In this document: positions 4,813 through 49,754 of the stretch, one piece after another | Layout of the letters: every line of letters starts with the position of its first letter | Numbering within the stretch: the first letter of the stretch is position 1 | From: a virus | Virus record (IMG/VR): IMGVR_UViG_3300014913_000006 | Length of the DNA stretch: 64,000 nt | Reading direction: 5' to 3' (one strand) | Position numbers and translations under genes: made by a program | The notes under the pieces: generated by a model | The model's input: only the letters and a program-made list of their open reading frames with translations | The model's database searches: none | Told to the model about the DNA's origin: nothing

Positions 4813-5454
4813 TTACAAGTATTCCAACTGGACATAGAGTCCGAAGTTCTCCTTCGACCCGATACTCAACGGTGTTGACGAGATACAAACGTACCAGTCA
4901 TGCCGCGTATCCTGCGAATCCGTACCAGACGGACTCAGGCCACCACTAGCTGCACTGCTCAGCAATGGAACCGTGACGCCAGACCCAGACGGTGCTACCC
5001 ACCCAGGATGACTCCCCGGTGCCAACGGAGTACCGCTAGAGCTAACGCCAGAACCACCGTTGCACACCTGAAGCACCTGAGTCGTAACGCCCTCAGCGCC
5101 AGCCGTGATGGTTGTGCGGTCGAAGATGCGAAGCTCACAATTCTGAGTCTTCACCGCCGTATCAAACGTGAAACGGATGTTGAGCGTCCCAGAGTTGATC
5201 GCTACCGCTGACGGTACAATCGCCGCTGCGCCATCCACGATCACGCCAGATGTAACAGTGTCGTACTTGCAGTTCGTAGCTTCCGGCCCTGCTGGAGCAC
5301 TACCGTCACTCGCACTGATGTAGGTGCTATCCTGATACTCCCCGACTTGAACCGAAGTTCCAAACGATGCACCGAAAAAACCCAAACCAGACGAATTCAG
5401 GTCTACCCAAGTTCCGCCGCCTTGCCCTGCATAGAAGTTAATCGCTGCTGCCAT
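4813..5454 (-). CDS. Putative virion structural protein, paralog of 9109-9744
   Basis: Shares SSGLGFFG, NIRFT and HDWY...P...G.K.FG....LEYL with its paralog; SD GAGGGGGTG; promoter motif upstream. Confidence 0.65.
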   Translation of the reverse strand: MAAAINFYAGQGGGTWVDLNSSGLGFFGASFGTSVQVGEYQDSTYISASDGSAPAGPEATNCKYDTVTSGVIVDGAAAIVPSAVAINSGTLNIRFTFDTAVKTQNCELRIFDRTTITAGAEGVTTQVLQVCNGGSGVSSSGTPLAPGSHPGWVAPSGSGVTVPLLSSAASGGLSPSGTDSQDTRHDWYVCISSTPLSIGSKENFGLYVQLEYL

Positions 5455-5506
5455 GTCTTTCACCCCCTCTCATTAGTTTTTCCAGAATCCTACACTTCAT
5501 CCACTC

Positions 5507-5556: not shown

Positions 5557-8500
5557 TTACACGTAGCCTGAACCCATCCACTTCTCGGGTTTCGGTCCGT
5601 CATTGGCGTCGTAGTATCGCCCGCCAGACGGATCATTGAAGAACGTGGATGCTCCGCTTTGCCATATCGCCTCAGCCTTGGTTAGATAGTCCTTGGCTAT
5701 ACCAAGAGGTAGCAAACCACTCTGCCACAGCATGATGTAATTGGCCAATTCGTCGTATCCGATCCGATGATCTTGATTGACATCCGCCGGATGATAAGCG
5801 GTCGATGAGCAAGCAGACGACATGTCCATGATGAAAAACGGCTCATCGAAGGCTGCGAAGTTTGACGTACCACCCAATGTTCCACCTGGGGACTTTGGTC
5901 CGGTCGTATTGCGAATCGAGGTGAACATAAACCTCACCTGTCGAGTCCCCGATGGAATCAGCACAGTTGTCTCGTTGACGTGCCACCCTGCTGTTCCGTC
6001 TGGCCCGAACGTATATCCAGAGATGAATGTGCTCGCACCAGGATTACCACTGTAGAAGTCAAATCGACCTTCGCCAGTATCATTGACCGCCTGATTGACA
6101 GTGGTCTGATAGAGGCCAATGTTTGCTTCATACAATCCGTGATCAATAGCGGCTTTTGGGACACCAAGCTTATCTGTGAGGTGAATGACCTGGGATACTG
6201 AGCCCGATGGCAAATCTGGTGCTCTGAAGTAATAGTCGTGCCCACTCCGAGAGACTGGGAAAGTATAGTCGATAGTCTCTTCTGGATGTGTTGCAGCATG
6301 GTTGACAACAGACGAAGGGCTGAATGGAGCAAAATAACTGTCTGGATCAATCAAAAAGTTGAATGTATTTTGTTCTTTATTGATGGTCCATGTAGTGCCA
6401 AGAGAACCACTGATACTTGGTTTAGTGTTAGGATGGGTCCAGTTGCGCAACATTTCATCTGGATCAAGCAGGGTAGCAACATTGTGCATGTGTAGTGGGA
6501 CAACATACAACGTTTGGTAATCATAGAGGATGTACGGATATCTGTTCAATGGAGAAAGACCTCCATCAGTTGGGTACTTTTTGGTGTTGTACTGAAGAAC
6601 AGGATAAGTCAAAAAGGTATAGTGATTGCCGTCACAGTCGGTAATAACCTCTCCACGCATAGGATGGCGTATTGGATTTGACGGAAGATAACCACTGATC
6701 GTATACACCCAAACTTCAGGAAAGTGTTCATCAAATCTACGGTAATTGACCCCTTGCACAATTTCCCCGTTAAGGTACCTTATGTAATAATCCCATTCGA
6801 TAGTACCGCTATATTGCGGTGAATAGATGACCGCCTGCCCATCCGCGCTTTGTCTATCTGATCTCTCAATGGCAAAAGGTGGACTAACATCCCATCGATT
6901 GTAGTAGGTATGACTGTCTCCAGGTTCGTACCATTGCCACCCAGGTTGATACATCGCCTTTTGTTGCATATGGAATGGAACTTCATCAGCAGTCTCCCAC
7001 TCCAATAGATTATTGCCCAAGATACCAACTTCGGGATTGATGGAACTTCCGTGTTCAACAACAAGCAGTACCGTATAAGTGAGAACATGATTGCCACCCG
7101 ACTGACTTTCATGAGATACACCGATCTGGATGTCGTCGAGATCATCCCACGTCCAAGGGTCGCCGGTAACCGGATTATATGGCCAATCAGACATAGAAGA
7201 ACCATTCATGATAGCGGCAATGCCGTTATGCCAAGCTCTGTAAGTGCGATCACCGCAACACTGACCATCCGAGATGTAATCTACATGCCCGCTTACTCCA
7301 GAAGGAACACGAATCAGGTGATGTTGTGTATCGCATGGGGATGTACTCCCAATCGAATGATCTTGTATACATGTCCAGATGCGATAGATAGGAGGCAGGA
7401 TGGTCTCACCCATATCGGTATTGATGTTCGGGACATAATCTTTTACTCCACCGAGACCGTAACCACCAGCCAATGGCTGTTCGCCAGACACAGAAAGAGG
7501 GCGCTTGAGGTAGAACAGAGACCTGCTACCAGAAACATCAGATCGCAATTGAGGGCAATCACTACTGGTTGACCACGGATTACTCTCATTGGGCTGCACA
7601 TGTTGGTAGGCATAATCCCTAGCGAGACCTGCTTGTGTGGCCAGATGATAATCAGTGTGCCAAGCCTCATTCCCGTGATGAACCACGTAGTCCTGTTGTT
7701 CACCATCCCAGTCAACATGAATAGTTGTAAGCTTTGTCCCATGTGGGATCATACCATCTGTCGGAGAACCATAGCGATTGGGAGCAGGTACACCATATGG
7801 CTCGCCGCTGGGAACTAGTGCGCCGCGAGGATTATCCGGCATCCAAGTATTATGTTTGCGTCCGTACACACCACCATAATAATCATCTCTCCAGTATTCA
7901 GGGTCCATTTCCATTGCTGTGAATTGCAAATTGTATCCAGGATTCCATTCCAAACTTGCATGAGATGAGAAGAGTGGATCGAAGATTTTGGATGGAACAG
8001 CACCAGATGGATCACGGCTGTCGTTCCAGATGATATTGTCGTAGAAGAAGCGACCACTATGGATGTTATCCTCTGTACTAGCATCAATACCGTACCCGAG
8101 ATACATCTTTTGCTGAGAGTATCCACCACCCCAGCCCTCACCAGTTTGTTCGTTAGACACATTGGTTGTGTGTTGAATATCGAGCTTACCATTGACCCAC
8201 ACATAGATCATGCCCAAATCTTCACCATAGAAATACTGGCCACTAGCAAAATTTTCGGGAGGCCATGCTGTTTGGTCTTGTCCAGGGAGCATAGCATTAG
8301 GAAACAATGGATGGCCATCGGCTGGCCATGGGTCCATCTGAAGAGGATATTCCTCTGTGCCTCCGAAGGCTTCTGATCCAGGTATGTATGGAGGTACTCC
8401 AGGAGATTCTTCATACGACTCGAAGAATGTCTTGAATGGTTCAACTGCATGATATCCCAAACCAACTGGTTTCGCACCAACTTCACTCACATCCCAACCA

Positions 8501-9096
8501 ATTTTTGGATTGATGAAAACCTGAATTTCGTGCCACTTATCTGGCTCCATGTAGATGAAACCCTGTCGTCCATCCGCTCTTGGAAGCCAAGCTGTTGGGA
8601 GATAACTAGGCGGATCGGTATCAGGTTGTGTAATGTGTTTACTGCCTTGCACATCCAAATAACCATTCCGTAGTGTTAGGGTTAAGTCTCTGGAAACATC
8701 ACCCGTCTTACTTCTCTGAAGAATAAGGACGCCACCACCAGTAGTATTGGTATACATGAAATCGAATTTGAGATAGAATGGTCGAACATCGTCAGGGTGT
8801 CCAGTGAATGGAAGATCACCCCATCCGCCAGTCCATAAGTGACAAGCATACTGATGCCAACCCTCTTCATGCTGCCAGACCTCTAGACAGTAATCTCCGT
8901 GTCCACCCTTGACACCATAACGATCATAAATTTCTTGATGAGACACAATCTGAGTATTCCGGCTACCGGCAAGTCCAACACCACCAGTACCATTTGCCCA
9001 GCCGGTAAACTCGGAAGGGAGATTTTGTCTGGCATAGTCAGAGAACATCTCCGTATGTTCTAGACCATGACCAAAATGTAGAGTGTACATCCTCAT
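5557..9096 (-). CDS. Large virion/receptor-binding protein: LamG-like N-terminal part, C-terminal dockerin/EF-hand-like module
   Basis: WHEIQV..VWVNGKL..FYDNI lectin-like motifs; YHPADVNQDHRIGYDEL at the C-terminus. Confidence 0.6.
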   Translation of the reverse strand: MRMYTLHFGHGLEHTEMFSDYARQNLPSEFTGWANGTGGVGLAGSRNTQIVSHQEIYDRYGVKGGHGDYCLEVWQHEEGWHQYACHLWTGGWGDLPFTGHPDDVRPFYLKFDFMYTNTTGGGVLILQRSKTGDVSRDLTLTLRNGYLDVQGSKHITQPDTDPPSYLPTAWLPRADGRQGFIYMEPDKWHEIQVFINPKIGWDVSEVGAKPVGLGYHAVEPFKTFFESYEESPGVPPYIPGSEAFGGTEEYPLQMDPWPADGHPLFPNAMLPGQDQTAWPPENFASGQYFYGEDLGMIYVWVNGKLDIQHTTNVSNEQTGEGWGGGYSQQKMYLGYGIDASTEDNIHSGRFFYDNIIWNDSRDPSGAVPSKIFDPLFSSHASLEWNPGYNLQFTAMEMDPEYWRDDYYGGVYGRKHNTWMPDNPRGALVPSGEPYGVPAPNRYGSPTDGMIPHGTKLTTIHVDWDGEQQDYVVHHGNEAWHTDYHLATQAGLARDYAYQHVQPNESNPWSTSSDCPQLRSDVSGSRSLFYLKRPLSVSGEQPLAGGYGLGGVKDYVPNINTDMGETILPPIYRIWTCIQDHSIGSTSPCDTQHHLIRVPSGVSGHVDYISDGQCCGDRTYRAWHNGIAAIMNGSSMSDWPYNPVTGDPWTWDDLDDIQIGVSHESQSGGNHVLTYTVLLVVEHGSSINPEVGILGNNLLEWETADEVPFHMQQKAMYQPGWQWYEPGDSHTYYNRWDVSPPFAIERSDRQSADGQAVIYSPQYSGTIEWDYYIRYLNGEIVQGVNYRRFDEHFPEVWVYTISGYLPSNPIRHPMRGEVITDCDGNHYTFLTYPVLQYNTKKYPTDGGLSPLNRYPYILYDYQTLYVVPLHMHNVATLLDPDEMLRNWTHPNTKPSISGSLGTTWTINKEQNTFNFLIDPDSYFAPFSPSSVVNHAATHPEETIDYTFPVSRSGHDYYFRAPDLPSGSVSQVIHLTDKLGVPKAAIDHGLYEANIGLYQTTVNQAVNDTGEGRFDFYSGNPGASTFISGYTFGPDGTAGWHVNETTVLIPSGTRQVRFMFTSIRNTTGPKSPGGTLGGTSNFAAFDEPFFIMDMSSACSSTAYHPADVNQDHRIGYDELANYIMLWQSGLLPLGIAKDYLTKAEAIWQSGASTFFNDPSGGRYYDANDGPKPEKWMGSGYV

Positions 9097-9108
9097 AACA
9101 ATCGACTC

Positions 9109-9744
9109 CTACAGGTACTCAAGTTCGAAGGTCATACCAAATTGCTTGTCACCCAACTGAGTTGGAGTGCATGTCAACGCAGCGTACCAATCATGTTGAG
9201 TGCTGAGTTCCTCGAAACCACCTTCTCTTGCCCCATTCAGACCTGGGGAATTGACCAGAGAAATGTAGTTAGAGCCCGATGCGCTAACGTCAGCCCACGA
9301 CGCATCGCTATAGACACTGGTGACAGCTTGCCTGTTGCTTTTGTGACGTATCTCAGCCGCATAAAACGTGAGATTTTCAGCGGGTATCTCTTTGTTCGCC
9401 ACACCACCGACGAAGCTTCCGTCGAACACCCAGAGCTTAGCCTGCTGGCAATACACAGCAGAACCATGAGTAAACCGCACATTGACAGTAGCAAGCTCAT
9501 TCGGTAATTGCCTCAAAGCGATACCTGAGCTTTCCTGTCCGTGGATCACGCCGGAAGCTCCGTTGTGCTTATTGTTGTTACACTCGAAACTCTCAACAGT
9601 GCCACTTGCATTTGTAACAAACGTGTGTCCGTTGTAGCCACCAATGGGTACGGCATCGTTGAAGCCGTCATCCCCGAAAAACCCTAAACCTGAACTAGCG
9701 GAGACCAAGGTGTCTTCGCCAGCGTACAACTCTAATGTTGCCAT
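9109..9744 (-). CDS. Putative virion structural protein, paralog of 4813-5454
   Basis: Same conserved blocks; SD AGGAAGG; promoter motif at 9766-9774. Confidence 0.65.
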   Translation of the reverse strand: MATLELYAGEDTLVSASSGLGFFGDDGFNDAVPIGGYNGHTFVTNASGTVESFECNNNKHNGASGVIHGQESSGIALRQLPNELATVNVRFTHGSAVYCQQAKLWVFDGSFVGGVANKEIPAENLTFYAAEIRHKSNRQAVTSVYSDASWADVSASGSNYISLVNSPGLNGAREGGFEELSTQHDWYAALTCTPTQLGDKQFGMTFELEYL

Positions 9745-9773
9745 AATCTTTTCCTTCCTTCCTTTTTATACAC

Positions 9774-11546
9774 CTAAATCGCCATTTGGTACGACAAAGG
9801 TTCCATCCGAGTTCCCGTAGCGGTGAAACTAACCTCGATATTCGGCGAAACCAGATCGCCTGGAACACTGTCTGGATTGCCCAAAGGTCCACTTGAGTTT
9901 ATGTAATACGATATAGACGGAGCCCACGAGTAAGGCCCCGGACCAAGTACATTGAAAAGTGGTCCTGGTTCCATCCCAATTTTGTGACGATTTTGAATAT
10001 ACGCTCTCATGCGAATAGCAGTACAACCAACACCCAAAGTAAACGTGTGTTCAAACGGCACCACCAAATCACTTTGGTCACAGGTGATAAAACCTACACC
10101 AGGAACTATCCCACCATTAATGGCGTTGTCCTCAAATGTCTCATCTGTATAATCATTTTCCACGACTTGCCCCCCGCCCAACCAAACTCCATCCCACCCA
10201 AACTTGTTTTTCATAGACATGGCGACCCTGACCGTTTTCTTCAGAGACTGACTACATCCATACTGCAAGTCACGAACTTCAACTGGGTCGTGTGGCGGAC
10301 ACAGAAGAGGTGCATAATACCATGTTACACTTTCTCCATAATAATAAGCTGTGGGGTCAGAGATTGGGCTTTTAACAGTCGCTTCTCCCGTAATGGTAAC
10401 CTCACCCGGCTCTGGATTGTCTGGATCAACCGGTATGTCCGACACATTGATCACAAAATCCAAAATCATATATGAAGCATATGTGAAATCGCGACCAGTT
10501 TCAGGCCCAACATAGGTATAATACCCACCACCCGGTGGGTATACCCCCACATAGCCCGTTCTGTCCGTCCAGTATTGGGCACCAATCATTTGTACTGGCA
10601 TCACATTGATGACGGCATTCAATTCTGTTAACGACCGATACTCATTCATCCCGTCTGCCCCGTTGTGATACTCATTCGATCCAGTGAGGGTCTTCAACGC
10701 CCTCTCCGGTGACAAGGATTTACACTCAACCCACATCTTTCCTTCGTTTGAACTGTCTACGGGGGAAGCAGGATCAAGGTTTTGGAACCAAAAGGATTCC
10801 CCACTATACCCATTGAAAGCTGCCGAATCCGTATCTGGAAGATCAAAGGGCAATTCTGCTTTCGACTCCATAGCCGCCGCCGCATCGGACAACACTTCGG
10901 TGACGGCCCTGAGATACTGGGGCATACCGAAGTAAGAAAGAACAGTCTTGTCACCAAATAAGTCGTTCAATTTTTCTTCATCAATTTCCGTAAACGCTGG
11001 ATAATGCACTGGAACAGAAACAAACAAGGACGCGGGTCTGGGATCAGGCTCCACATATCCATTCTGCAATATCTCAAAGCTGTTCGTCCAAGCCGCAGGA
11101 ACCTCAGAAATGGATGGATAAATGTCATCTAACCCAAGTGTTGTTGCCCCTTCTTCTGTCGTGCTGATGATTGGAATCTGAATATTAACCAGAGGACTTA
11201 TTTCTCCATCTATGTCCGAACCGGCATGAATCATCTGCCACATAGCCAATCCATATGACATTCGACCGAAAGTATCCAAGAGTCCAAGAACATGACCAGG
11301 ATTCGTGTAATCGATACCCGGAACACCAACGCCCAAACCGGTGTATGCTATATTTGGACCATAACAAGCGGGTGCTGGATTTACATACTGATATGGATTG
11401 AATCCGGGATACGTCAAGGTTGTCGGATTCGGATACAAAGGCCCTTGATAACCACCACACATTATACCCAAGTCGGGCTGAAAAGGAGTGTACCCATGCG
11501 CCGCAAGGCTCATTAGTTTGTTGTCACGAATATCGCCGATAGGCAT
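9774..11546 (-). CDS. Hypothetical tail/baseplate protein
   Basis: 590-aa ORF in the tail gene order. Confidence 0.55.
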   Translation of the reverse strand: MPIGDIRDNKLMSLAAHGYTPFQPDLGIMCGGYQGPLYPNPTTLTYPGFNPYQYVNPAPACYGPNIAYTGLGVGVPGIDYTNPGHVLGLLDTFGRMSYGLAMWQMIHAGSDIDGEISPLVNIQIPIISTTEEGATTLGLDDIYPSISEVPAAWTNSFEILQNGYVEPDPRPASLFVSVPVHYPAFTEIDEEKLNDLFGDKTVLSYFGMPQYLRAVTEVLSDAAAAMESKAELPFDLPDTDSAAFNGYSGESFWFQNLDPASPVDSSNEGKMWVECKSLSPERALKTLTGSNEYHNGADGMNEYRSLTELNAVINVMPVQMIGAQYWTDRTGYVGVYPPGGGYYTYVGPETGRDFTYASYMILDFVINVSDIPVDPDNPEPGEVTITGEATVKSPISDPTAYYYGESVTWYYAPLLCPPHDPVEVRDLQYGCSQSLKKTVRVAMSMKNKFGWDGVWLGGGQVVENDYTDETFEDNAINGGIVPGVGFITCDQSDLVVPFEHTFTLGVGCTAIRMRAYIQNRHKIGMEPGPLFNVLGPGPYSWAPSISYYINSSGPLGNPDSVPGDLVSPNIEVSFTATGTRMEPLSYQMAI

Positions 11547-11551
11547 TAGCC

Positions 11552-13945
11552 TTACCCTTCCTCAACCGGTGGTGTAAACACCTGCGGTGTCTGTTCCATG
11601 TAAGCAACATATGGTCCATGTTCACTCTTCGAAAAAATACTAACCGTAACCCGTGTTCCAACTGGAATTAAGCCTGGACTAGTGTCTGTTTCGGCCAAGT
11701 TCCGCACACCGGTCCACTCGGACAAAAAGTATGAGTTCGTGATATTCAAACCACCAGCAAACGTTTGTGGATCGATGTCCGCATAGTTGAGTCGCCTGAC
11801 AGCATAGAAGGGGCCACCTTCTTTGAAAGACACGACACCCAGACCACCCTCTGGTTTTTGATATGTGTACTCCATATTTTCCTGGGATGGGCCAGTGAGG
11901 GCTTCTTCTTCAGTCTCCGGTGCCGACTCTGGCTCTGGTGGAGATTCGAAATCATCCTTGTTCTCTGGGAAATCATCCTCTGGTTCTTTCTCGTCGTAGA
12001 TATCATCCTTTTCTCTCTCTTCTTGTTTCTTGCGTTTGAACTCACCGAGTTCCCGTGTGTAGAGATTCATCACATATCTGGTCATGACACCGTTAGTGTC
12101 AAATCGAATGAATATCTCTGTGACACTACCACCAAGACCAATAGATTGACCTATGTTGACCTGTGGCACATCTGCAACCTCTAATTGACCAGTATTGATG
12201 ACAGACAATCCTGGTAATGTGTCGATTTTCTGAGCAGCCAATTCTGTCAACCCGGCCATGGCGGTGGGGTTCAACATGCCACGAACACCAAAGGTCCACG
12301 GCACCAAATCCTTGTCGACAGACACCTCTGAAGACCCGGGAGATAGAACACGACTACGTACCATAGATGTATTGGACCACGGTCCGTAGTGGATACCACG
12401 ATCCATGATTGGGGTCCATGCTTTCGACAGCGTCCCATGACGAGTGGTACGGCTTGAATCCACCTCTCCCGTGTCTGGGTCCATATAGTATCGAGTCAAA
12501 GCTACTGGCAAAACCATGATGACATAACGACCATATTGCTCCAACGTACACTTCATGTACGATTCACTCTCGCGTGGTATAAGGTTATTCGAATTCTGAA
12601 CAACGGGTGCCCATTCAACATAGTGTGGCACCATAGGCGACTCAACAGTCCCAGAACCAGTCAAGAAAAGCTCTGACAAATGGACAAACGGCCCCCAACG
12701 ACCGTCTTCGGTAGTCAGCTTCAGTAGAACATCTGGATCGAACTGTCGTGCACCCTGTGGCGGTGTGCTGCCTTCCCACCATCCGGCAGGAATGATTTCT
12801 GGATAGTTTGGCAAATCCTGCCCTGTATCCGACATTGTGTTCTTGTTCAGTGCAAAATAGAATCTCTTACCCCAGAAGTCATCTATATATCGCTTGAGTG
12901 CGGCGAGTTGATCAGCATCCATAGACCCATCACGACTACCGTTAAGAACAGCTTCCATCTCTTCGATAGTTGTATCAAGTCTGCGATATTGTGGTTCATC
13001 AGGCATTGTATACGACGGAGTAGCCAGTGGTTGCCCAGCCTCATTGAACCCCCAAAATTGACTTATCTCAACGCCATGGACCTGATCCAGTTTTCGTTTC
13101 ACGCCACCCCAGATCACCTTGTGGGTAGTGGTATCAGAATTCTCGTATCCGTCTTTACGGCGAATGACACGATCGCCATGTAGCGCAGCAAGTTCATCCA
13201 TTTCCAATGCTGTGGGATTACCGATGCCATCCAGGCGTCGAACAGTTTTGATCGTGATAACAACAGTATCATCAACAACACTCTTTCGCTGGGACTCTAC
13301 CCACCACTCAGCGCCAACAGCATTGCAGAATTCTGTAATCGTTGACACCAAAGACCTAACTTCTCCCTCGATATAATATTGGCCAACACCTTCACCACGC
13401 CAGTTTTCAAGAGTTGCCAACTCACTCATATCGACTTCGAAAACATCATTCCCATAGCTTAGAGTAGCGGCCTCTACACGTTCCATGATGGTACTAAACA
13501 AAACACCTTTGTTTTCTTCCCTACTAGACCCCTCAGAAGCTTCGGTATCACCTCTCGAACCAATGTATACAACATTGCTGTCAACCAAAGCAACCTCGGA
13601 ATCGGGTTCGTCAATGTACACATTGGCGATATTGGCAGAATCGAGAACAGTACGACAATCGGTCAGCCTTACGACATAGATGCCGGTACCATTGGGGTCG
13701 GTAGTTGTTCTCTCCCAAGATTGTACGATACCAAGGATGCTTAGTTCACCAAATCCAACATACTGAGCAGAACGGACATCGTATTGATCCAGGGTAAAAT
13801 TCTGATCATCTTCCTCGACAACAGTAACCGTAAACACGATGGGCTGGCTATTGAAACCCATCTGCGCAGTGATACTCTTGAATGAACAACCGAAGACCTT
13901 GGTTGTTCTCGCACCCCACGTATCGTCATAAATTACTACAGCCAT
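11552..13945 (-). CDS. Putative baseplate hub / tail tip protein
   Basis: 797 aa; YVVRLTDCRTVL and LVSTITEFCNAVG..WWV hub-like pattern; position downstream of tape measure. Confidence 0.55.
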   Translation of the reverse strand: MAVVIYDDTWGARTTKVFGCSFKSITAQMGFNSQPIVFTVTVVEEDDQNFTLDQYDVRSAQYVGFGELSILGIVQSWERTTTDPNGTGIYVVRLTDCRTVLDSANIANVYIDEPDSEVALVDSNVVYIGSRGDTEASEGSSREENKGVLFSTIMERVEAATLSYGNDVFEVDMSELATLENWRGEGVGQYYIEGEVRSLVSTITEFCNAVGAEWWVESQRKSVVDDTVVITIKTVRRLDGIGNPTALEMDELAALHGDRVIRRKDGYENSDTTTHKVIWGGVKRKLDQVHGVEISQFWGFNEAGQPLATPSYTMPDEPQYRRLDTTIEEMEAVLNGSRDGSMDADQLAALKRYIDDFWGKRFYFALNKNTMSDTGQDLPNYPEIIPAGWWEGSTPPQGARQFDPDVLLKLTTEDGRWGPFVHLSELFLTGSGTVESPMVPHYVEWAPVVQNSNNLIPRESESYMKCTLEQYGRYVIMVLPVALTRYYMDPDTGEVDSSRTTRHGTLSKAWTPIMDRGIHYGPWSNTSMVRSRVLSPGSSEVSVDKDLVPWTFGVRGMLNPTAMAGLTELAAQKIDTLPGLSVINTGQLEVADVPQVNIGQSIGLGGSVTEIFIRFDTNGVMTRYVMNLYTRELGEFKRKKQEEREKDDIYDEKEPEDDFPENKDDFESPPEPESAPETEEEALTGPSQENMEYTYQKPEGGLGVVSFKEGGPFYAVRRLNYADIDPQTFAGGLNITNSYFLSEWTGVRNLAETDTSPGLIPVGTRVTVSIFSKSEHGPYVAYMEQTPQVFTPPVEEG

Positions 13946-15690
13946 TATGCTCCACTCTCCGTAACCGTATGAACCCTAGTGCGAGAATACTTGCCGGTCG
14001 TTGGATTCCAAACCTCATGGTCACTTTCCAGGATGTACGATCCTGGATACCACGGACTGATCATGGGGCCATACGGCACGCCCCCTGCATCATCCATAGT
14101 ATCAGCAACGGTATCAGTATCCGGCTTCGTCGATCCATGACCTTCAGAACGATAGCTAACGCTGACCTGCTGAGCCGTGGCAGTATTGATCCGCTGGATG
14201 ATTGGTCCAGCGATACGTCCTGGGATAAACAATTTTGCCGCCATAATCTGTGGATAGGCAATGTCAACAGTAATATCAACATTGTTCTCATCCTTGTCTG
14301 TCCATGTCCATGAAGTACGGGACGAACCTCTTGTCTCGTTCAACGCACTAGTCTTCGCCACATGGGTACCAACAAAGGTAACACCGGCAGGCTTTTGTGA
14401 GCCAATCAATGTCTGGGCTAATGCGCGTGCGTCTACATCTGACGGAATGTTGCTGCGAGCATTATTAAGCCTCTCTGTCTTGGTATCCCCTTTGCCCTCG
14501 ATGTCAACATTCAGGACCAGAGTATAGACCCCATCAGCAGCATTATACGTCAGAGTCGCTTCATTCCCCTGTACGTAATCTGCATCTTCACTGGCAGACC
14601 AGTTGAAGCCGAATGTGACAACAGCGTCCTTCTCGTTGATAGTGATATTCTTCTGAGTCGGAGATACAGGAATGACGTAGCCTTCAAGCAACGTGCCTAA
14701 CGCTGTTTCTGTCGCCGCCTTCGCCTCAACATTTGTCGGTATCTCAGCCTTCGCATTTGCAATAGCAGATGAACTACCAGTACGCGATTGATCTTGCAAA
14801 CCGTAGATAGTCCCGTTGTACGTCACGTCAACCGTTTCGTCCTCGGACCTGTGAATTACTGTAAAAGACTTCTCAGAATAGGTCGCGGACACCTCTCCAG
14901 GACCGGCCTCTCGGATCACCCACGTCTCGGTAACAGCGTAGCTGCCATCTCGTTCCGAAACATTCATACCCTTCGTGTAGCTGCCGTTGACCCAGTCCGC
15001 AAAGCTGGTCGCATAGGTCACGAACGAGCTATCAGGCACCCCCGCTATCCTTGAGTCGCACCAGCCCTTAGCGTTATCCCAGGCTTGTGTCTCAGTACCG
15101 GTCACCTCGTCGAAAGTGAGCAGCCCCTTGGCACTAACGATGTGATGAATCTCGTACACTTTACCGTCATGCCCAGCCACTTCGCTGAATTGCCATTCCT
15201 CTGACACATCCTGAAGACCTGAAGCATCGAAAATATCCTCATCGATGATGCCGGTCAGATACTCGGCTTCAAGTTCAACGCGATAATCGCAGCGGTCGGC
15301 CCACTGACCTTCTGGGAAAACAATAGATCGGACCTTGGGACGGCACTTGACCGGAGAACCAGCCCCGCCGTACCATTCCAACACCTTACCATCTTCCCTG
15401 AACAGCCATCTCAGGGCCTCTTGCTTGCGTTCTAAACGAACAAACGGCACGTCGCCGCCTGTGTACGTCTCATCCGGTGGATAGTCACCGAGAGTCCAGA
15501 AAGCGTCGGATGGGTCGCCCAGAGGGTAACTGCCACTTGGGGAACCTCGGAACGGCAGAATCGTCCCTGCCAACGAAATCTCGTATCCCACACCGTGCTT
15601 CCCGCCATCACCAGCAGTTCGGTACACCTTCGATACCGACACCAGTGGCGCTGGAATAATTGCTTTGTTATCGTATACAACCGAAGCCAT
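13945..15690 (-). CDS. Putative distal tail/baseplate protein with internal repeats
   Basis: 581 aa; repeated G.I.G...NA(K/R)..IP....NE..G....W units; SD GGGAGG. Confidence 0.55.
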   Translation of the reverse strand: MASVVYDNKAIIPAPLVSVSKVYRTAGDGGKHGVGYEISLAGTILPFRGSPSGSYPLGDPSDAFWTLGDYPPDETYTGGDVPFVRLERKQEALRWLFREDGKVLEWYGGAGSPVKCRPKVRSIVFPEGQWADRCDYRVELEAEYLTGIIDEDIFDASGLQDVSEEWQFSEVAGHDGKVYEIHHIVSAKGLLTFDEVTGTETQAWDNAKGWCDSRIAGVPDSSFVTYATSFADWVNGSYTKGMNVSERDGSYAVTETWVIREAGPGEVSATYSEKSFTVIHRSEDETVDVTYNGTIYGLQDQSRTGSSSAIANAKAEIPTNVEAKAATETALGTLLEGYVIPVSPTQKNITINEKDAVVTFGFNWSASEDADYVQGNEATLTYNAADGVYTLVLNVDIEGKGDTKTERLNNARSNIPSDVDARALAQTLIGSQKPAGVTFVGTHVAKTSALNETRGSSRTSWTWTDKDENNVDITVDIAYPQIMAAKLFIPGRIAGPIIQRINTATAQQVSVSYRSEGHGSTKPDTDTVADTMDDAGGVPYGPMISPWYPGSYILESDHEVWNPTTGKYSRTRVHTVTESGA

Positions 15691-15701
15691 CTTGTCCTCC
15701 C

Positions 15702-16421
15702 TTAATACCCGTTGTCCACGAAACCAGGCGGTATTTTGTCTCTTTTGACAAATCTATTGCATCTTGGACACAATAATGACAAATTTTCTAAACCAAACAA
15801 TGCTAACAATTCCGATTCGTTAGATGCCGAAGATGTCGGTACAATATGATCGATATCATAACCGACATCGTCATAGTCACTTTTGCACATAGGGCATCTA
15901 TTGTTTTGTTGTCGCCTTATGCCCTCCAGATGATCACACAGTTCTTCGCCGGAATACGGAAGATGTTTAGTGAAACCTTTTTGTCCGTTGAGACGATGAT
16001 GCAATGCACTCCTTAGTCTGTTTTGATATATATAAATTGGTTTCTGCAACCTATTTCTTTGTGTGTTTCTCCTTTTTTCTTTTGAAGACGAACGCGACGA
16101 CCATTTTCGAAACTGTTCGGATTCGCACTTATTGCATCTCAATCTACCCAACCCACATCTTGTTCTGTGAGAGTGTGTCGTGTTGCCGTGTCTCGGGCAA
16201 ATTGCAATTATCTTGTTATTCCCAATTTTTGAAACGATCAATCTTTTTTGTCCACCCTGCACTCCATAAGCTTTTAAGCCTAGTTGCTTAGCCCTGCTAA
16301 TAATAGCAGTGTAGGTACGATCGAGTTTGTCGCAGCAGCCTTTGTAACCACCATTCGGATAAGCATTTTTCAATATTTCAATTTCAATGTTTGTCCATTT
16401 AGGGTATTTTTTGCTATTCAT
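15702..16421 (-). CDS. HNH homing endonuclease, family A copy 1
   Basis: WT..E..IL...YP N-terminus; CPMC...DIDHIVP...NLSLLCPRCN; AT-rich. Confidence 0.85.
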   Translation of the reverse strand: MNSKKYPKWTNIEIEILKNAYPNGGYKGCCDKLDRTYTAIISRAKQLGLKAYGVQGGQKRLIVSKIGNNKIIAICPRHGNTTHSHRTRCGLGRLRCNKCESEQFRKWSSRSSSKEKRRNTQRNRLQKPIYIYQNRLRSALHHRLNGQKGFTKHLPYSGEELCDHLEGIRRQQNNRCPMCKSDYDDVGYDIDHIVPTSSASNESELLALFGLENLSLLCPRCNRFVKRDKIPPGFVDNGY

Positions 16422-16422
16422 T

Positions 16423-19400
16423 TTAATATCCATGCGAATACAGGTTCCCGCTGGTATTATACACAAGGGTACCAGCATCTAGGAACAGGTGGAGCCCACT
16501 AGGGCCGTTATTGAACATTCCAGAGACACCCATCAAGTAAAGTGGTAATGTATCCGTCTCTTGTTCAAAGAGTCCTTCTACAAACAGATTGCCAGACGCA
16601 GCAAGTACAATTGGGACTGCACCAGACATGTACAGCGTTGCGGTTCCGAACCAACCCGGATCACATCTCAAGAACAGGCTCCATGGATCGTCATGGGAAT
16701 CGTGTGGTTGGAATCCAATTCGAGTTGGGTCATCTGGGTTGACGCTGCAAATCAGACCAACAGAGCCAGTGATCTCAATGCCGTCCGGTGGTTGACCCGG
16801 AGCGTGACCACGGATGTACAGGCTGCAAGTTTTTGGTACAGTGAAATCAGCCTTCAAGAACATCGTCCAAGCTTCGTCGCTTGTCAGATTGCCCTCTTGC
16901 GCCTTCATGAACAGGGTCCATGCTTCTGTCCCGCCTGCCGTGTATGGGTAATCCGCGTCGGCAGCTTCGAGATACAGTTTCACATTATTAAACGCCCGAT
17001 TGATGCCAGATGAGCCGGATGGTAGTGTAAAGCCATTGATGAACAGATCGAGAGATTCGGTTTTGTCGTTGTCGTCAGTTTTCAGGTATAGAGTCCAGCC
17101 ACCCCATTGTCTTCCTGTGCCGATGAACAACGGACATGTACCGCTAGCTTGGTCATATCCATACGTATACAAGGTTGGGCTTGGATCGCCATATGGGTAT
17201 GTAAAGTCGTCTGGGTCACCTGGATACGAGAAGCTACCACTTGAACAGATGAACTCTGGTCCCTTAATGAATAGGTCGCAATTCCCGCTACTGCCATTAT
17301 GCCCGAGGATGTATAACGGTGGGCTAATACCATGTCCTGCACCACCACCAACACTAGTGAAAACACCAGCCATCGTGTATAGGTCTACGCCGCTTGAATG
17401 TGGCTGCGGACCAACGATAAACAAGGTGCCAGATTCGCCAATTTCTTCGTGACCATCACCTATTCTGAGTAGCATACCAGATGGATAATTACCGCTGGTA
17501 TCAACATGTCTGTGTCCCTGTATGTAGAAATCTACGTCATCAGCTACTGGACCAAAGATAACCAACGGACAGGTGTCCTCGTATTGGAGTGGTCCTCGCG
17601 TATACAATGGTGGACCATATTCAATTCCCGCCATCGATTCGATGGCAGCAGCACCATCAGCCGCAAAGATGAAGTCTGTCAACTCGGGTGTTCTAGGTGA
17701 TGTGCCGATGTAGGCACTAGTGAATGATTCCTGTGTACGGAGATACAGGTTGGCCGTCCCACTATTTTGTAATGGCCCCTGCATGTAAAGGTTGCACCCA
17801 CGGCTTGCTAAGCCACCGGTCAATCCACTTGTTGTGCCAGCAGTATCACCTGTGGTCTCGATAACAAAGATACCGCTACCAGTTGAACCACCAAAGAAGA
17901 CTCCACTACCAGTAAACGAAAAATCGTCAACACGAGGTACGCCGTGATAGTGAACCGGGAATAGATCGTAACTGTAGATACCAGTTGGGGTTGGTGAACG
18001 TCTCTGGTTAATTTCTGGATGATTGTCATGGTTGACCCATCTGATCGAGGCACCATAGGAATTAAGGTTGACTTCGTCGTTGTATGGCTGCAGCACGCCA
18101 CTCTGTGGATCGTGGAATATTTGTTCCCCACCATTTGGCCTAGGACCTTGGCTATGGTATGTTGTACTGGTGAACGGCTGGATGTTACCAATATAAAATC
18201 CAGACGGTGGTGTTTCTTCGAGCAAGTAGGCAGATGCATCTGCCCCGTAGGCACCTAAGCCAACTTCTATAGTGACACGAAGCCCTGAGCAAATCTCGCC
18301 CGGATTGTAGCCGACCCCTGGAATTGTTGGATCATATGCGAATGCCCCCACTGTTCGCTGGATATATGTTGACGGTGGAACTATGGTTGGTCGGTACTCA
18401 TCTAGTGGTCTATTATATGTATCAACGATACTGTATAGGTCTCTCAACTCGTCTGTTGTAAAGCGACCGGCGTCGGTCCATAACACATTCTCGGCTAAGA
18501 TTATGCTACCCTGTTTGACACCACCCATTTCAGCAGGTATGATGCCACCAGTGATATTAACGCCCTGCTGTCTTACACCAACACAGTTTTCGGCTCTCCT
18601 GTTTGTTGGGTCGCTGTAGCTATATAGAGAACTAGCGGGTGGGCCAGTCAGACCAGAGCCAACATAAGTCCATGGCTGGCCGTCAAGACTTAGGTAGACC
18701 TTCATGTGGTTTGGATGGCTACCATCTATCCCACTGGCTATGAAGTCAGCATGTAAGGCAACAAAGACAATAGGATCATGGTCAATATATGTTGTCGGCC
18801 ACTCTTCCTCCCAAGTTCTGTACAATCCTGTTACTTCTGTATTCCATTCCCAAGTGGAACCGCTCGGGGTGCCATAATGGGTAGTACCTCCCCACCACAG
18901 ACCGCCGCCGCTTGGCTGCTCATATGGTACGTCACGAACATTCGTGATAACAGTGATGCCACTTTCACTCTCAATACGAATACCAAGCGTATGTGAAGCA
19001 AGAGCAATGTCTAAATCTTCGGGAAGACTCTTGCGGAACCAGCCGACCTCAGCTACGTTTCCGGAAGTGTGGGCGCCAGACATCCAAAAGACTGTGGTAA
19101 AACTGCCCGAACCAGCATATCCATAGTTTTCTGTCTCACCACAGATATTCTGCTTATATCGTTCTGATTCGTAATATCCCATCTTTGTTGATTGCCAACC
19201 ACCACCGGGAGTACGATAGTCTGTATCCATCGCTTCGCGGTAATTATATCCACCCAAATCGTCATAGTGTGGATATGTTCCATCGCCGGGTGTTGGAACA
19301 AAAGGTTCGGCCAGAATCGAGTCAGCTACATGGGCGACTGTTTTACCGGATGTACCGATAAAGGGAGTGTGCTGGAACAAGGGGGCTGGAACGTACCACG

Positions 19401-22400
19401 CTTGATCTTGCACAAATTCCGTAATGTCTCCAGCAGCACCCTGTCCATCGTGATAGTATTTGAGATAGAATACAGCGTTGGGCTCTCGGATAAGACCCGG
19501 ACCTGGATCAACCGGATTGTAGACAAAGAGATTGAGTGACGCAGTTTGTGGCTCTATAGCCTTCAGGAACAGATCGCCCGACGAAACATGAGGGGCAATG
19601 CCGTGGGCGAATAGGTCTCCAGATGTTTTGATTGATTCGTATCCGCGAATGAAGAGATCGTGCCGATCATTGTGGGGGATAATCCCAGAGCCTTGCGAAT
19701 AGAGTTGAACACCAGATGGATAATTTGGGCAGTCATCAACATTGGTGGCGTAGCCGAAAACACCATGAGTGAACAGGTTGCCGGACACCTGATGTATGTC
19801 GAGGCCATGTGTGAACAAGTCTGCATTGGCAGTTTGTATTCCGTAGATATGTAGAGAGACACCAGATGGATATTGATTATTCGAATTAAACGATTGATGA
19901 CCACATGTGACCAGATCGCCAGATGTGGTGTAGGGTGCTACCCCGCCAACATATAGATTGCTACTACCTGCTAGGTCGAGCGGCGTATCGATGAAGTTAT
20001 CCCAGTAGCCGAATAGTGTGAAATTATCTCGATCACCTGTAGCGTCTTCTGAATATACTTCAATGTCAGAATTTGCGTTGACCTGCATGTCGGTCACGAC
20101 ATATCGCGTTGAAAGCGGGGCAGCGCTAACACCTATCTTTCGTTCCAGTTTAACTGCTTTAGATCGCACGCCGACAACACGACTGTCTTCGTTTTCGTTT
20201 GTTATTATTCCGATCGACGCAACAGCACCGGATGGTACGCCACTGAGACTGACAGATTCCCAGGTACTATCAACAGTAGGATTGGCCTCATTTTGTTGAT
20301 AAAGATCGGTATAATCTCCAGGCGGCTTCTTCCAATACCCAACAACAACGGTTGGCTGCCAAGTGTTAGTAAATTCATGATATTTTTGTATTGTAGCATT
20401 GGCTCCGCTCGTTTGGAGCATGGATGTCCAGAAAGAATATCGTTCGGAAGCGTGGTCACCCCCAATCCACTTAAATTTCCGATCGGCAGGGTTCCCCACT
20501 GATCGAACACCTTGAAGCTGATTGCCATAGCTTTGGCCCTCCAAAACTTCGACAATAGCGCCACTTGGTACCCCAGCAGAATCAAGGTCTAGACTGTTCC
20601 ATGTCGATGTCGGATCGGCTGGGAGTATTGTTGCTGCTAGTTCTTGATATTCAGCACCAACCCAATATCCCATCAGGTAGAAATTGACACCACTGGGAGC
20701 ATAACACTCTATCTTTGTTCCAGACAACTGTACGTGCATAGTAGCTGCATTGTAACCACCATATGTTGGCTCAGCGGGTGCAATACTAACTCTCCTGTCT
20801 AATAATGAACCAGCGGTCCTTACGCCTACTAGCGTATCTGCGTTGACTTCTCCACTGTTGCAGATCATGATTTCGGCTGTTATGTCGGAAACGTCTGGCA
20901 CCCAGGATGCCAAGTCTTGTGTTTCCCAGGTATCTTTTGATAATGGTGTCCAAGTTCTAAAGTCTTCGATGTAATGGCACACTGTTAACTGATCGAACAC
21001 TTTCGTGTACAGATTCATGCTATTCGAACAGGGCTCTCGCACTTTGATAAACAGATTACCATTGTCGGCGTACTGTTCTGGTCCGCTGATAAACAACGGC
21101 GAAGATGGCCCACCATCTTCGTGTGAAATACCTGGATACATACCGCTGATACCACTTGTGCCGACTAGATGTGGCCCACTAAGGAACATACTGCCGGACG
21201 ATAAACAAGATTCCGGGACTTGCAGGAACATGTTGCCATTTCCTTCAAATCTCCTTGGACCCATCGTGAATAAGGGACACTTGGCGACCGGAATTCCGTC
21301 GATGTACATTTGGAGACCGCTGGGATAATCTGCTTCTTCTAATACGTTGGGTGTCTTGTGACCATGGGTAAACAATCCAACAGTGCCGTTGTCTCGCAAT
21401 GGAATTCTGGAGAGGTTGTCCCAGTATCCTATGAGTCTATATGCATATGTGCTCGACGAATTGTCTTGGTAAAATTCCGCATATGTCCCACTAGTCATGT
21501 TGACATGAACACGCATCATGCTGGCTGCGGTATCAGCCGCCACATTGATGTCACGTTGTTCCAGATATTTGTCATCATAGCTGGAATAAACTTCTCTGAT
21601 CCCCATGTCAAGGTGGCTATTCGATCTGTTTTCTAGAACGATTTCACATACTGAACCTTCTGCCACGCCGACATCTAGTGGTTCCCATTGATCGCTCACC
21701 GTGCTAGGACCAACATCGGAGAAAGCTTCGTGATATGTCCCAGGCGAGAAATCCCAGTAACCAACAACAGTGAATTCTATGTCGTCGGCAATTTCGGCAT
21801 AAAGCTGAATAGTTCCGTCCGTTCCGCTCGCCCGCACTTGCATTGTAACATAATCTTTGCCGCCAGTATCCGACACTTTGTCAAACACATGATGACGATC
21901 GAGATTTGAACCCACTTGTCGAACGCCGCCACTCAGAGGTATCTGTGCGGTGGTGTCAGTATTTGCTACAACAACATCAACAATCTTGTTTGCGTATTGA
22001 GTACCTAAGTCATAACTTTCCCAACCCGCATCTCCGGTCGCGCTAATAATATCATTGGCTTCTACATAAGTAGCACCACACCAGAAACCGGCCACCTGAA
22101 ATTTGTTGTAGTCATCATTATCTGCGTACACTTCAATATTGCCACTGTCGTCAACGGGGACAAACAGGCTGAGGTGATCATTGCTATAGCCAACAGCTTC
22201 GTGTAGGCTAAATCTACGATCCAACGAAGACCCAACAGACCTGGCACCAACAAGGTAGGAAACCGTACCTCGCGAGTTCAATAAAACCAATTCGACGACA
22301 ACTGGATCGATGTCATTGGTTAATGGAACACCATAATCGTTTACGTTGAAAGTATTCCAAGTGTCGGCGGGTGTCGTTTCGATGTATGTCGTACTTAATT

Positions 22401-23527: not shown

Positions 23528-26500
23528 CTAAGTTAACGCACTCTCAAAAGCGTTCGCCGCTTCTGAGCTACCAGCCGAACGAGCCAAATGCTGAAGAACA
23601 GCATTGATTTCGGCTTTAGCCACCCTTGTTGCAACAGCTTCGAAATCCGCTGTGAATTCTTTCGCCGCTGCTCCAACGCCGGAAACATCCACTTTGATAT
23701 CGCTCATAGTCTCGATGTCAATACCAATGCCCTCTTCCATCGCTCCCGCGACCCTGGCCATCCCCTCATTAAGATTGCCCATGCTCTCCTGAGATTTGTC
23801 TATGACTTCGTTGTTTGCAGCAATCGCCTCAGTATTGTCGTCCAACCCCAGAACTTCCAGTGGCTTCTTTTGTCCAGACGCAGCACGATCAGCTTCCTGT
23901 TGCGTCTGAGCTTCAATAGCCATAGCCACCGAATCAACTCTATCACCCAGGGCATTTACCGCCTCTGTGGTTTGCGAAATAGCCTCACGAGCACCCTCCC
24001 CGCCAGCGCCGCCAGCAGCAGCCTCTTGTTGTCCAGCCAACGCCTCTCTCTGTGCGTCAGCGATAGCCTGCATCTGCCCGACAGATTCGTTCATACCCTG
24101 ACTCGCCACGACCATGTCGGTTCCACCAGTACGCATATCTGTTGAAGCCGTCCGCATCTCTTCTGTGGATCGTGTTGTCGCGTCAGCAGCCATACGTGTC
24201 TCAGAAGCAGCCTGTTGGATATCTGCCGCCGATGCAGAAATATCTTCAAAGGCACGAGGTGCAGCCTCTTGTTCCCCCATCGGTTGCTGTGCGGCAGGGG
24301 TCAGACTGCGCAGATAATCCTGCATTGCTGGCGTTAACTGTGGCACGAGTTCCTCTGGTTGACGAGCCACCTCTGGGCGTTCGATCATTGACTGAAGACT
24401 ATTGCTAAGATCATTCAGACTGCGGTTCAAAGCACCAATATGCTCGACCTCTCTGATCCCAGGCTCTTGCGCCTGTGACCTTAGTGACTCAGCAGCAGCC
24501 TTGGCTACCTCTGCAGGGTCTAGTCCGCTGTCTTGGATCATCTTGGGAATATCGTAGATGAATCCTTTGAACTCACGGAAGCTCTCTGCCAATTCGATAT
24601 TGGCTGAAGCCTGATCTTGTTGACCACGATTCAGTTGACCGAGCACCTTGCTTTCAGCAGTTGAAGCAGCCGCCTGGAGCATTGTCTCCATGACCCTACC
24701 CATGTCGCCACCGAACAAGGCTGATTGTAGATTCCTCTGATCCATCGTTCTCTGCTGTTCTGTCCGACGAGCTTCTGGAACATGTCGCCTCTCCGTGTAA
24801 ACCCGACCCTCTGGCGTAACCTTAGTGTCAAGCGCACCAGCACCTCGCTCCAAATCTTGTTTGGTGAGAGATGAGGTAAACGCCTTGACCGCAGAAGCAC
24901 TTTCTCTCAAGGCTTGTGCAAAGATGTCAGCAGGCTCTTCGAAAGCTTGAGCCACGTCGATCGCAGCTTGAGCCTCGATAAATTGTCGCTGCCGACTGAT
25001 CAATTCACTCATTTGCTTACTACTACTTGCCAGATTCTCTGCTGCCTGAGCGGCCCATTCCTCATTGAAGTCATAGCCCAATCCACGTCGCTCTTCCTGT
25101 TGCTCAGATAAAGCCTGCGGTGCCATTTGTGCCATCTTCGCCAACTGCGCCAAAGCCACCTGCAAGTTCAAGACCTCAGTAGCAGAATCAATAGCTGCTT
25201 GTTGCAGACCCCGGCTTGCACCCTCACCGGTTTTCTGTGCTTCTGCAACCTTACGGTTCAGTTCAGCGTGCCTATTGTAACTCTCTTCATACTGCTTCAA
25301 GACTTCTCCGACGACATCTCCATTCTGTGCCAGATCAATCATCACGTCATTCGCATCCACAAACCCCATAGCGAATCCTGGTGGGAACTGGATATCCAAA
25401 CCAGCTAACTGCATGGCATTCTGGAAACTGCGGATAATGGTGTCACCCAACTCTGATGTACCAACATCTACCCCAGCCAAAAGCTCTTCGCCAGCCAGTG
25501 CTAGATTCAACTGTTGTGCCTGGGCATCCATCCAAGTCTTGAAAGTATCAATGGCCGCTTCGTAGAATGGTTGTTGTTTCCCAAGCACATCCTGGAACGC
25601 CTTCTGGATCGATTCTGAATCCATCACCACACCAGCCTGATCAACCAACATACCCTTCAGTTGTCCACCAAGATTTGCAGCAGCAGCCCTAAATGCCGCT
25701 TCGGCTTCAGGTGGAATTTGTTCTGGATATTCCTCTATGAACTTGTCGATGTAATCCTCCAGGACATCAAACGGGTCAACCTGTGGATCACCAAGCAGTG
25801 ATCTTAGTGAATCAGCATTGGCCTTGCTTTTGATCATAGACTTCATAAACTCTTCGAGAGCGGTCCCGACCCGAGCCATGTCTGTCGTAAACCCTTTTAG
25901 TTCTTCAAACTGACTCAGATCAAGGAAGTCACCCATTTTCCCTGTTCTGGCAATTTCTTCAACAGCCTCTCTTGTGTACTCGCCTCCAGGCTTAGCAACA
26001 CTAACATCTTGTCCAACCAACTGGCTCAGCTTGTCAAATGTCTCAACGTTGGTTTGAATCGATCTTGCCGCATTTCCAACAGCATCACTCAACAGACCAA
26101 GCTCATGACTGAGTTGCACTGGTACATGCAATCGCTCAAAGTCACTAGAAGCCTTTTCGATAGCGTTGGCCAACTTGGTTACCTTGACATCCATCTGAAC
26201 CTGATCGATACTCGCTGCGATTTTCTCAAGTCCACCAAGTTGAGTGATCATAGCCTGACGAACACGGGCTGCGGCTTCCGCATTACCACCAAAAGCTTCT
26301 GTCAATATCTGGTCGAAACCAGCTTCCAAACCACCGGCACCAAACTCTTCAACGGCACGTTGAAGAATCTCATTAAGCAATTCTGGATTCTTGCCAACGA
26401 TCGTCTCTAGTATCTCCTGGGCCTCGGTATCGCCAACGGTTACTAAACCTTCACCCTTAAACAAATTAGCCACACGAGGACCAATATTGGCAAAAACGTC

Positions 26501-49751: not shown

Positions 49752-49754
49752 AGC

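Follow-up and report, generated by a model that had tools for sequence, protein, structure and literature searches.

The stretch of DNA analysed here, called the window, comprises 64,000 nucleotides (nt) of the virus record IMGVR_UViG_3300014913_000006 (IMG/VR) and is part of an uncultured tailed phage of ~160 kb (160,364 bp). Two of its tail-module proteins, P0001 and P0002, carry the two halves of a pair of protein modules that also occurs in bacteria: P0001 ends in a tag of the family that we call HPAD after its first four residues, and the fibre-like P0002 contains a beta-sandwich module that is homologous, by profile alignment, to the one directly preceding HPAD in bacterial proteins. A third protein, P0003, probably contains a second, weaker copy of the tag. 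The three segments had been proposed in a first-pass annotation of the window; three minus-strand open reading frames (ORFs) lie at the claimed places, and the coordinates of the HPAD and AY..EE motifs were confirmed. The relevant features are as follows.

5557-9096, minus strand: P0001, a tail-module protein of 1179 amino acids (aa) ending in the HPAD module (ORF and translation)
5560-5814, minus strand: HPAD module of P0001, residues 1095-1179 (alignment A5 and hidden Markov models, HMMs)
16423-23517, minus strand: P0002, a fibre-like protein of 2364 aa, directly downstream of the tape measure gene
17548-19500, minus strand: central cassette of P0002, residues ~1340-1990, with a LamG-like region and the beta module (tblastn maps)
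17836-18372, minus strand: beta module, the candidate 'socket', residues ~1716-1894 of P0002 (AY..EE..PPSGF motif)
55742-56893, minus strand: P0003, an ORFan of 383 aa; an HPAD copy lies inside it, and the C-terminal half beyond the copy is LamG-like
56378-56578, minus strand: HPAD copy of P0003, residues 106-172 (HMM built from bacterial modules only)

In P0001 the HPAD tetrapeptide starts at nt 5793. It is followed by a 12-residue EF-hand-like loop (residues 1105-1116; nt 5749-5784), two helices that each end in WQSG and a Y-Y-D ... P..W tail at the C-terminus. The loops of P0001 and P0003 both have Asp, Asn, Asp, Ile and Glu at the EF-hand ligand positions 1, 3, 5, 8 and 12. Reading of the P0001 sequence further indicates LamG-like regions. 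The protein has six relatives with 58-87% identity to it; the motif of HPAD plus loop is invariant across the six related phages, and the identity of the tag among them (44-81%) is comparable to that of the whole protein. In a six-frame translation of the window the tetrapeptide occurs four times and is followed twice by the loop D-x-N-x-D-x-x-I-x-x-x-E, both times in long ORFs, and a scan of the window with the bacterial HMM detected no further copy of the module. A single-sequence search of 5.8 billion proteins with the HPAD tail gave matches only among phage relatives.

For cellular genomes, a degenerate DNA pattern of HPAD plus loop was run against a collection of 185,579 species-representative genomes. 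It matched at least 120 stretches versus ~26 expected by chance in the whole collection, a uniform base composition being assumed. Among the matches listed, 76 of the 123 in-frame ones share family hallmarks that are absent from the pattern, namely a first-helix Tyr with a Trp three residues on, a second helix with I-W-x-x-G and a Tyr-rich tail. Among the same listed matches, 41 of these 76 tags lie at most 90 residues from the end of the ORF, and the matches cluster in Hydrogenedentota, Verrucomicrobiota, Planctomycetota, Lentisphaerae, Acidobacteriota, Desulfobacterota and Patescibacteria and, among DPANN archaea, in Woesearchaeota and Nanoarchaeota. The taxonomy of the at least 120 pattern matches thus bears out the earlier claim that the modules co-occur in bacteria of the PVC (Planctomycetes, Verrucomicrobia, Chlamydiae) group and in some archaea.

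The HPAD tag family is defined by alignment A8 through the prefix and loop, the Tyr/Trp pair, the I-W-x-x-G second helix, Y-x-Y-D and P-x-x-W. The tag comprises ~65-85 residues with one EF-hand-like loop and two amphipathic helices and usually forms the extreme C-terminus of a secreted protein. Neither Pfam nor NCBIfam has a model for it, and no description of the family or of its link to the DUF11-like beta module discussed below was found in the searchable literature; literature searches on the motif, and on dockerins in phages or Hydrogenedentes, returned nothing relevant. As judged by alignment, HPAD is an uncatalogued C-terminal tag family that is widespread in bacteria and archaea. Compact versions of ~45 residues were found at the very C-terminus in L057, L100 and L111 (Patescibacteria, Woesearchaeota, Nanoarchaeota) and consist of the loop, a helix ending in W-x-x-G and a second helix with the same ending. 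The same pattern also matched a separate family from Phenylobacterium and other Proteobacteria (L040, L069, L070, L094, L108, L127, L147), small proteins in which the HPAD-prefixed EF-hand is paired with a second, canonical EF-hand loop.

P0001 displays every hallmark of the HPAD family: prefix, loop, Tyr/Trp, I-W-x-x-G, Y-x-Y-D and P-x-x-W. Its tail aligns to 49 bacterial modules (A5) over the full family length including the last P-x-x-W, with one ten-residue insertion, and scores 49 bits with the HMM built from bacterial modules only. Since the bacterial set was collected with a pattern derived from the phage, a second HMM was built that covers only the part after the loop and hence is non-circular. 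With this HMM, P0001 ranked top of 853 ORFs, at the expected place (14.8 bits, E 8.5e-4). A chance motif was rejected because the family hallmarks go further than the pattern demands and because the module sits in the right place. An AlphaFold2 (AF2) model of the tail shows two helices at low confidence (predicted local distance difference test, pLDDT, 47.6), and a Foldseek search with this model returned nothing at E below 6.

The copy in P0003 is less complete. Its tetrapeptide starts at nt 56560 and its loop at residue 115. The bacterial-only HMM matches with 26 bits over profile positions 2-36, that is, loop and first helix; both are clear, and the second helix is divergent. The module is 21% identical to that of P0001 in A5, shows only prefix, loop and Tyr of the family hallmarks and was undetected by the post-loop HMM. 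By these matches it is a probable but weak member of the HPAD family. P0003 had neither a homologue of similar length in a collection of 5.8 billion proteins nor a match in five related genomes, and in the closest complete relative, G004, 12 nt stand in place of P0003 and most of the gene at 54818-55738. P0003 is a strain-specific accessory gene, not a conserved part of the virion.

In a PDB search with the HPAD profile, the matches were to EF-hand loops of calcium-binding proteins of known structure, with a best E of 7e-7; they cover no more of the tag than the loop and the helix after it. Pfam gave sub-threshold EF-hand matches in at most 6 of 57 tag-family members and a Dockerin_1 match in one (E 0.045, far below the cut-off). 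P0001 has His at loop position 6 and P0003 has Phe; in the bacterial tags this residue is for the most part aromatic or aliphatic. The loop of the tag probably binds calcium. According to A5, the module has one D-x-N-x-D loop and no acidic loop before the second helix, although the two helices end alike (in P0001, both in WQSG). Because of the one loop and the bulky position 6, the tag is not a dockerin by sequence or repeat structure; Dockerin_1 (PF00404) matched neither P0001 nor P0003 nor their segments, and true dockerin membership was rejected for the missing HMM match and the single loop.

P0002 is built from N-terminal repeats of ~120 aa, fibre repeats, the central cassette and a conserved C-terminal part. 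Scans of P0001, P0002 and P0003 against Pfam, PHROGs and NCBIfam, with full proteins and cut-out segments, gave no useful match, and P0002 and its segment had no Pfam match even at E up to 10. A single-sequence search of 1.84 billion representatives with the beta segment found relatives only in ~14 phage proteins. Compared with bacterial beta modules, the phage module has an insertion of ~35 residues, which is missing from the beta module of a distant phage relative, L021. The L021 protein is matched by an HMM of bacterial beta modules with 28.8 bits. Phage and bacterial beta alignments were matched by hhalign with a probability of 95.7% (E 9.6e-9), the 88 matched columns running the full length of the module, and a joint alignment of 24 phage and bacterial beta modules (A6) holds together from the first strand through to the closing G-D. 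On this profile evidence the segment of the fibre and the beta-sandwich found immediately before HPAD in bacterial proteins are homologous.

The family closest to the beta module is DUF11 (PF01345). Of the A6 sequences, 7/24 match it with a best E of 2.6e-5, and the phage segment does not; in full-length scans the matches reach 19.8-25.3 bits versus a cut-off of 24.6, all of them bacterial and one above the cut-off. At the level of sequence families the module is probably DUF11/CLIPPER-like but divergent. CLIPPER is the new name of DUF11, which has been shown to be a CnaA-like sandwich of fibrillar adhesins and is described there as a stalk domain and not as a receptor or binding partner; many of its members have a Lys-Asn isopeptide bond with a catalytic Asp, and some DUF11 domains have no isopeptide bond (bioRxiv 10.1101/2025.04.25.650565). 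In the phages a CLIPPER-like isopeptide bond is doubtful, because the only invariant Lys of the bacterial modules is Arg there (A6, A7). Cohesin (PF00963) matched none of the 24 phage and bacterial modules at E up to 1, and true cohesin membership was rejected for this lack of an HMM match.

An AF2 model of the beta segment contains ~nine strands in a sandwich at low confidence (pLDDT 49, predicted template modelling score 0.55). The fold matches of this low-confidence model are effectively tied between CnaA-type pilins and adhesins (Z 8.3-9.6), cohesins (Z 7.5-8.2) and the CLIPPER structure 9IFR (Z 7.9), Z values of a size that is common. PDB searches with single sequences and beta-module profiles gave no significant match, and a protein atlas yielded weak leads only, namely DUF11 clusters for the phage beta segment (0.84) and a cluster with 24% Dockerin_1 members (0.82). 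The label 'beta-sandwich' probably holds and the topology may be cohesin-like, but membership of the cohesin family does not hold. For the cohesin-like and dockerin-like labels of the first-pass annotation, family membership fails: neither phage nor bacterial modules match Pfam Cohesin or Dockerin_1, the beta module is nearest DUF11/CLIPPER, and the tag has one loop. Elsewhere in P0002, residues ~1-870 (20900-23517, minus strand) form apparent tandem repeats of ~120 residues with a recurring G-V-R-x-S-G-S ... D-R ... H-E motif. These have no Pfam or PHROG match and are kept in relatives without the central cassette.

Bacteria deploy the two modules both fused and apart. Among the matches listed, a beta module lies directly upstream of 13 of the 51 distinct bacterial HPAD modules, at a fixed spacing and in several phyla. 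The bacterial beta module measures ~110 residues; in the fused units its AY..EE..P.GW motif precedes HPAD by 81-90 residues (mostly 82-85), and the arrangement is often beta-HPAD-beta. Such fusions are found in Acidobacteriota and others; L139 and L036 provide examples of a fused beta-HPAD unit. The Hydrogenedentota genomes G008, G009 and G010 encode 60, 51 and 16 HPAD modules versus 5, 3 and 0 beta modules, and the beta-module proteins of these genomes carry no HPAD. As read from their sequences, the ones examined possess either an N-terminal hydrophobic signal-like segment (one with a possible lipobox) or a C-terminal hydrophobic segment; they have GE-rich linkers, and two of them contain two beta modules, among them L155, a small putative lipoprotein. 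The bodies of the HPAD-tailed proteins are unrelated to each other and include a trypsin-like peptidase with PKD, a beta-helix, an FGE-sulfatase domain, InlB repeats and CLIPPER_2. Many tags, few anchored beta modules and fusions elsewhere are the pattern of a docking pair, which suggests such a function and does not prove it. In G008, the beta proteins L152 and L154 also contain long arrays of Cys-rich C-D-D-x-x-x-C-T-x-D-x-C-D-P repeats with (G/E)-rich linkers. The same repeats, which match Pfam Dicty_CTDC, precede HPAD tags in other proteins of these genomes.

In the phage, the genes for P0001 and P0002 lie in a region that is assigned to the tail module because the tape measure gene, recognised through PHROGs, is located there. 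Four further entries describe their surroundings.

23528-28585, minus strand: tape measure protein, 1685 aa (PHROG tape-measure families, best E 2.5e-30)
9774-15690, minus strand: a conserved set of three genes for the tail or baseplate (590, 797 and 581 aa), located between the fibre gene and P0001
9109-9744, minus strand: gene of 211 aa, paralogue of 4813-5463 (blastp, 28% identity over 219 residues, E 3e-19)
4813-5463, minus strand: gene of 216 aa, paralogue of 9109-9744, downstream of P0001

Along the minus strand the tape measure gene is followed by P0002, an HNH endonuclease gene, the 581-, 797- and 590-aa genes, the 211-aa gene, P0001 and the 216-aa gene. P0001 is a lineage-specific gene flanked by two paralogues.

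Among 2.9 million viral contigs searched with the exact pattern, the full HPAD module occurs only in this phage clade. The search also met small phage proteins (~100-165 aa) with an HPAD prefix, an EF-hand-like loop, a charged helix and a hydrophobic, membrane-like segment (IMG/VR contigs at L171, L172, L174, L175, L180, L181, L184, L185, L188, L190, L192, L194 and L196), which are unrelated to the tag family beyond the loop. Relatives of the phage were gathered through the conserved 581-aa tail protein and then scanned with HMMs. The count comprises 11 phages with both sites covered, the window included; L021, in which the DNA past the 212-aa gene is not covered, stands outside it. Seven of the 11 have the cassette with its beta module together with a tagged P0001, four have neither, and none has only one. 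Hence, when co-occurrence was checked across relatives as the annotation had advised, cassette and P0001 were present together or absent together in 11/11 phages; the corresponding test of independence is inapplicable to P0003, because its whole gene is absent from the relatives. The four phages with neither (L030, L031, L159, L164) are similarly close, with 58-77% identity in the 581-aa protein. Their P0002 homologues skip roughly residues 1340-1990 (tblastn), and the paralogues that flank P0001 elsewhere stand side by side. The 590-, 797- and 581-aa genes are retained in all relatives, whether the modules are present or not. On the best tree of four conserved tail genes, the joint pattern needs 3 changes. 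The coupling of cassette and P0001 across phages is suggestive, not proven.

Several other genes of the window were noted. Six tRNA genes lie within it. HNH or homing-endonuclease-like genes, all on the minus strand, are interspersed among the structural genes at 15702-16478, 57404-58654 and 61844-62587; the first shares 56 nt with the end of the fibre gene, and the maps of L030, L031, L159 and L164 leave no space for it between the fibre and 581-aa genes. Proteins of 611 and 916 aa (47916-52505, minus strand) have fibre-repeat regions in common with P0002, and a separate 115-aa gene repeats their C-terminal ~100 residues; a 306-aa neighbour of P0003 is similar to the middle of the 916-aa protein. 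The regions 47916-52505 and 54459-55738 (minus strand) form a mosaic block of fibre or decoration genes that is variable among close relatives.

What the two halves do on separate tail-module proteins can be read in more than one way. We tentatively favour, as possible rather than probable, a docking pair that is reused inside the virion: the tag binds the beta module, P0001 is thereby attached to the fibre cassette, and P0003 is an optional passenger. In cells, the tag would plug into the beta-sandwich, and many secreted proteins would be held on few membrane-anchored carriers. The phage would have taken up both halves of this uncatalogued cell-surface module pair of bacteria and archaea. P0001 would then hang by its C-terminal tag on the fibre cassette with its lectin-like domains facing the host, and P0003 would serve as a second, strain-specific passenger. 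The docking of adhesins onto the fibre that was originally suggested is partly supported. Of that suggestion, the real module pair, the location of its halves on different tail proteins, the docking-like distribution in bacteria and the joint presence or absence of cassette and P0001 in phages stand, and cohesin/dockerin membership falls. A complex prediction for the fibre beta module, the P0001 tag and calcium gave 0.13, 0.60 and 0.18 versus a mark of 0.32; this is no verdict and was used neither way.

A number of points weigh against docking within the virion. Binding of the tag to the socket is inferred and not observed, and so is the location of P0001 and P0003 in the virion. The loop has no Gly at position 6, where it is usual in EF-hands (A5). 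P0003 matches the family over loop and first helix only, and its gene is 37 kb away from that of the fibre, among fibre-like and head-proximal genes. G010 has 16 tags and no detected beta module (genome completeness not given). The approximately unbiased (AU) test is compatible with the four module-free phages forming one clade (p 0.27), so the joint pattern may rest on one event. The fold assignments are weak because both AF2 models (pLDDT 49, 48) are of low confidence. Moreover, phage fibres normally attach by the N-terminus and bind the receptor by the C-terminus, which would suit a receptor-binding tag.

Such a tag is the core of the first alternative, docking to the host surface. Here the P0001 tag would be the receptor-binding tip and plug into a beta-module carrier or an envelope polymer of the host, which we regard as somewhat unlikely; that the fibre beta module captures HPAD-tagged proteins of the host, or is only structural, is in our opinion on the unlikely side as well. 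The last large tail protein does have the tag as its extreme C-terminus, a usual receptor-binding site in phages, and bacteria with the system display many tagged proteins and membrane-anchored beta modules that would be accessible receptors. The modules are clearly of cellular origin, with the full HPAD confined to this clade among the viral contigs, and variable, lineage-specific tail genes are typical determinants of host range. However, this explanation presupposes a host with the module system. It also needs the tag alone, whereas the joint gain or loss of both halves is more simply explained by mutual binding. Finally, the tag is about as conserved (44-81%) as the whole protein (58-87%) and not hypervariable, as receptor tips often are.

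Alternatively, the two modules might be independent. The beta module would be an Ig-like fibre decoration for stability or weak carbohydrate binding, and HPAD a calcium-stabilised cap or glycan-binding end, a division of roles that we consider rather improbable; similarly, there is only a small chance in our estimate that both were acquired separately by domain shuffling and that their joint presence reflects the shared ancestry of one lineage. The stalk role of DUF11/CLIPPER, the nearest named family, would fit, and phage structural proteins often carry Ig-like domains. The AU test leaves room for a single origin of those phages that lack both modules, and among the matches listed 38 of the 51 bacterial HPAD modules have no adjoining beta module. 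On the other hand, the fixed-spacing fusions across several phyla and the ratio of many tags to few sockets in Hydrogenedentota point to a functional link, and a mere stabilising cap would hardly be expected on 50-60 unrelated proteins of one genome. A single recombination would not bring or remove both P0001 and the cassette either, because the two are ~8 kb apart with conserved genes between them.

Going beyond the phage, HPAD and the DUF11-like beta module could constitute a new calcium-dependent plug-and-socket, an analogue of dockerin and cohesin of separate origin, which in at least eight bacterial and archaeal phyla displays dozens of enzymes and binding proteins on each cell and of which one clade of large phages captured both halves for exchangeable adhesins. 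In this full form the proposal is doubtful. If the modules do bind, they would represent a second, independent solution to the cohesin-dockerin problem, found in many little-studied phyla and missed by the domain libraries now in use, and would explain how Hydrogenedentota organise 50-60 secreted proteins on their surface. The phage would then provide the first tail fibre that recruits accessory adhesins via a cell-derived module pair. Host range could be changed simply by swapping a tagged passenger, and a small natural protein-protein connector would become available for engineering. If the modules do not bind, HPAD is still an uncatalogued C-terminal tag family, to which the labels 'cohesin' and 'dockerin' do not apply.

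Among known systems, EF-hands such as those of calmodulin, polcalcins and Entamoeba CaBP resemble the tag in the 12-residue loop with D, N/D and D/N at positions 1, 3 and 5, Ile at 8 and Glu at 12, followed by a helix. The HPAD tag differs in having a single loop instead of a pair and a bulky residue instead of Gly at position 6, and only the tag has the invariant His-Pro-Ala prefix and the conserved second helix plus tail. CLIPPER is the nearest named family to the beta module: its crystal structure 9IFR aligns over 118 of its own 123 residues with the low-confidence model (Z 7.9) at the highest identity in the list, 14%, and it is likewise a surface-protein domain in bacteria and archaea. 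In contrast, the phage segment has no Pfam match and carries the insertion of ~35 residues.

A further parallel is the cohesin-dockerin pair, in both its type I form of cellulosomes and its non-cellulosomal forms. In both systems a C-terminal tag of calcium loop plus helix is placed after a low-complexity linker on many unrelated secreted proteins, and a beta-sandwich of ~110-150 residues, sometimes in tandem, is carried by few anchored proteins. Both show a many-to-few ratio per genome, with 51-60 tags each in two genomes here. Dockerins, however, have two duplicated loops, whereas the HPAD tag has one, in which position 12 is Glu and position 6 is not Gly. By sequence the beta module is closest to DUF11, and HPAD and beta modules are often fused in one chain. 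Among phages, branched or adaptor-mediated receptor-binding systems, e.g. those of multi-tailspike phages, use N-terminal anchor domains of phage origin. As in the arrangement proposed for P0001, an accessory adhesin is mounted on a primary fibre and not on the baseplate, and the accessory genes vary between close relatives. The proposed anchor of P0001, by contrast, would be a C-terminal calcium-loop tag of cellular origin.

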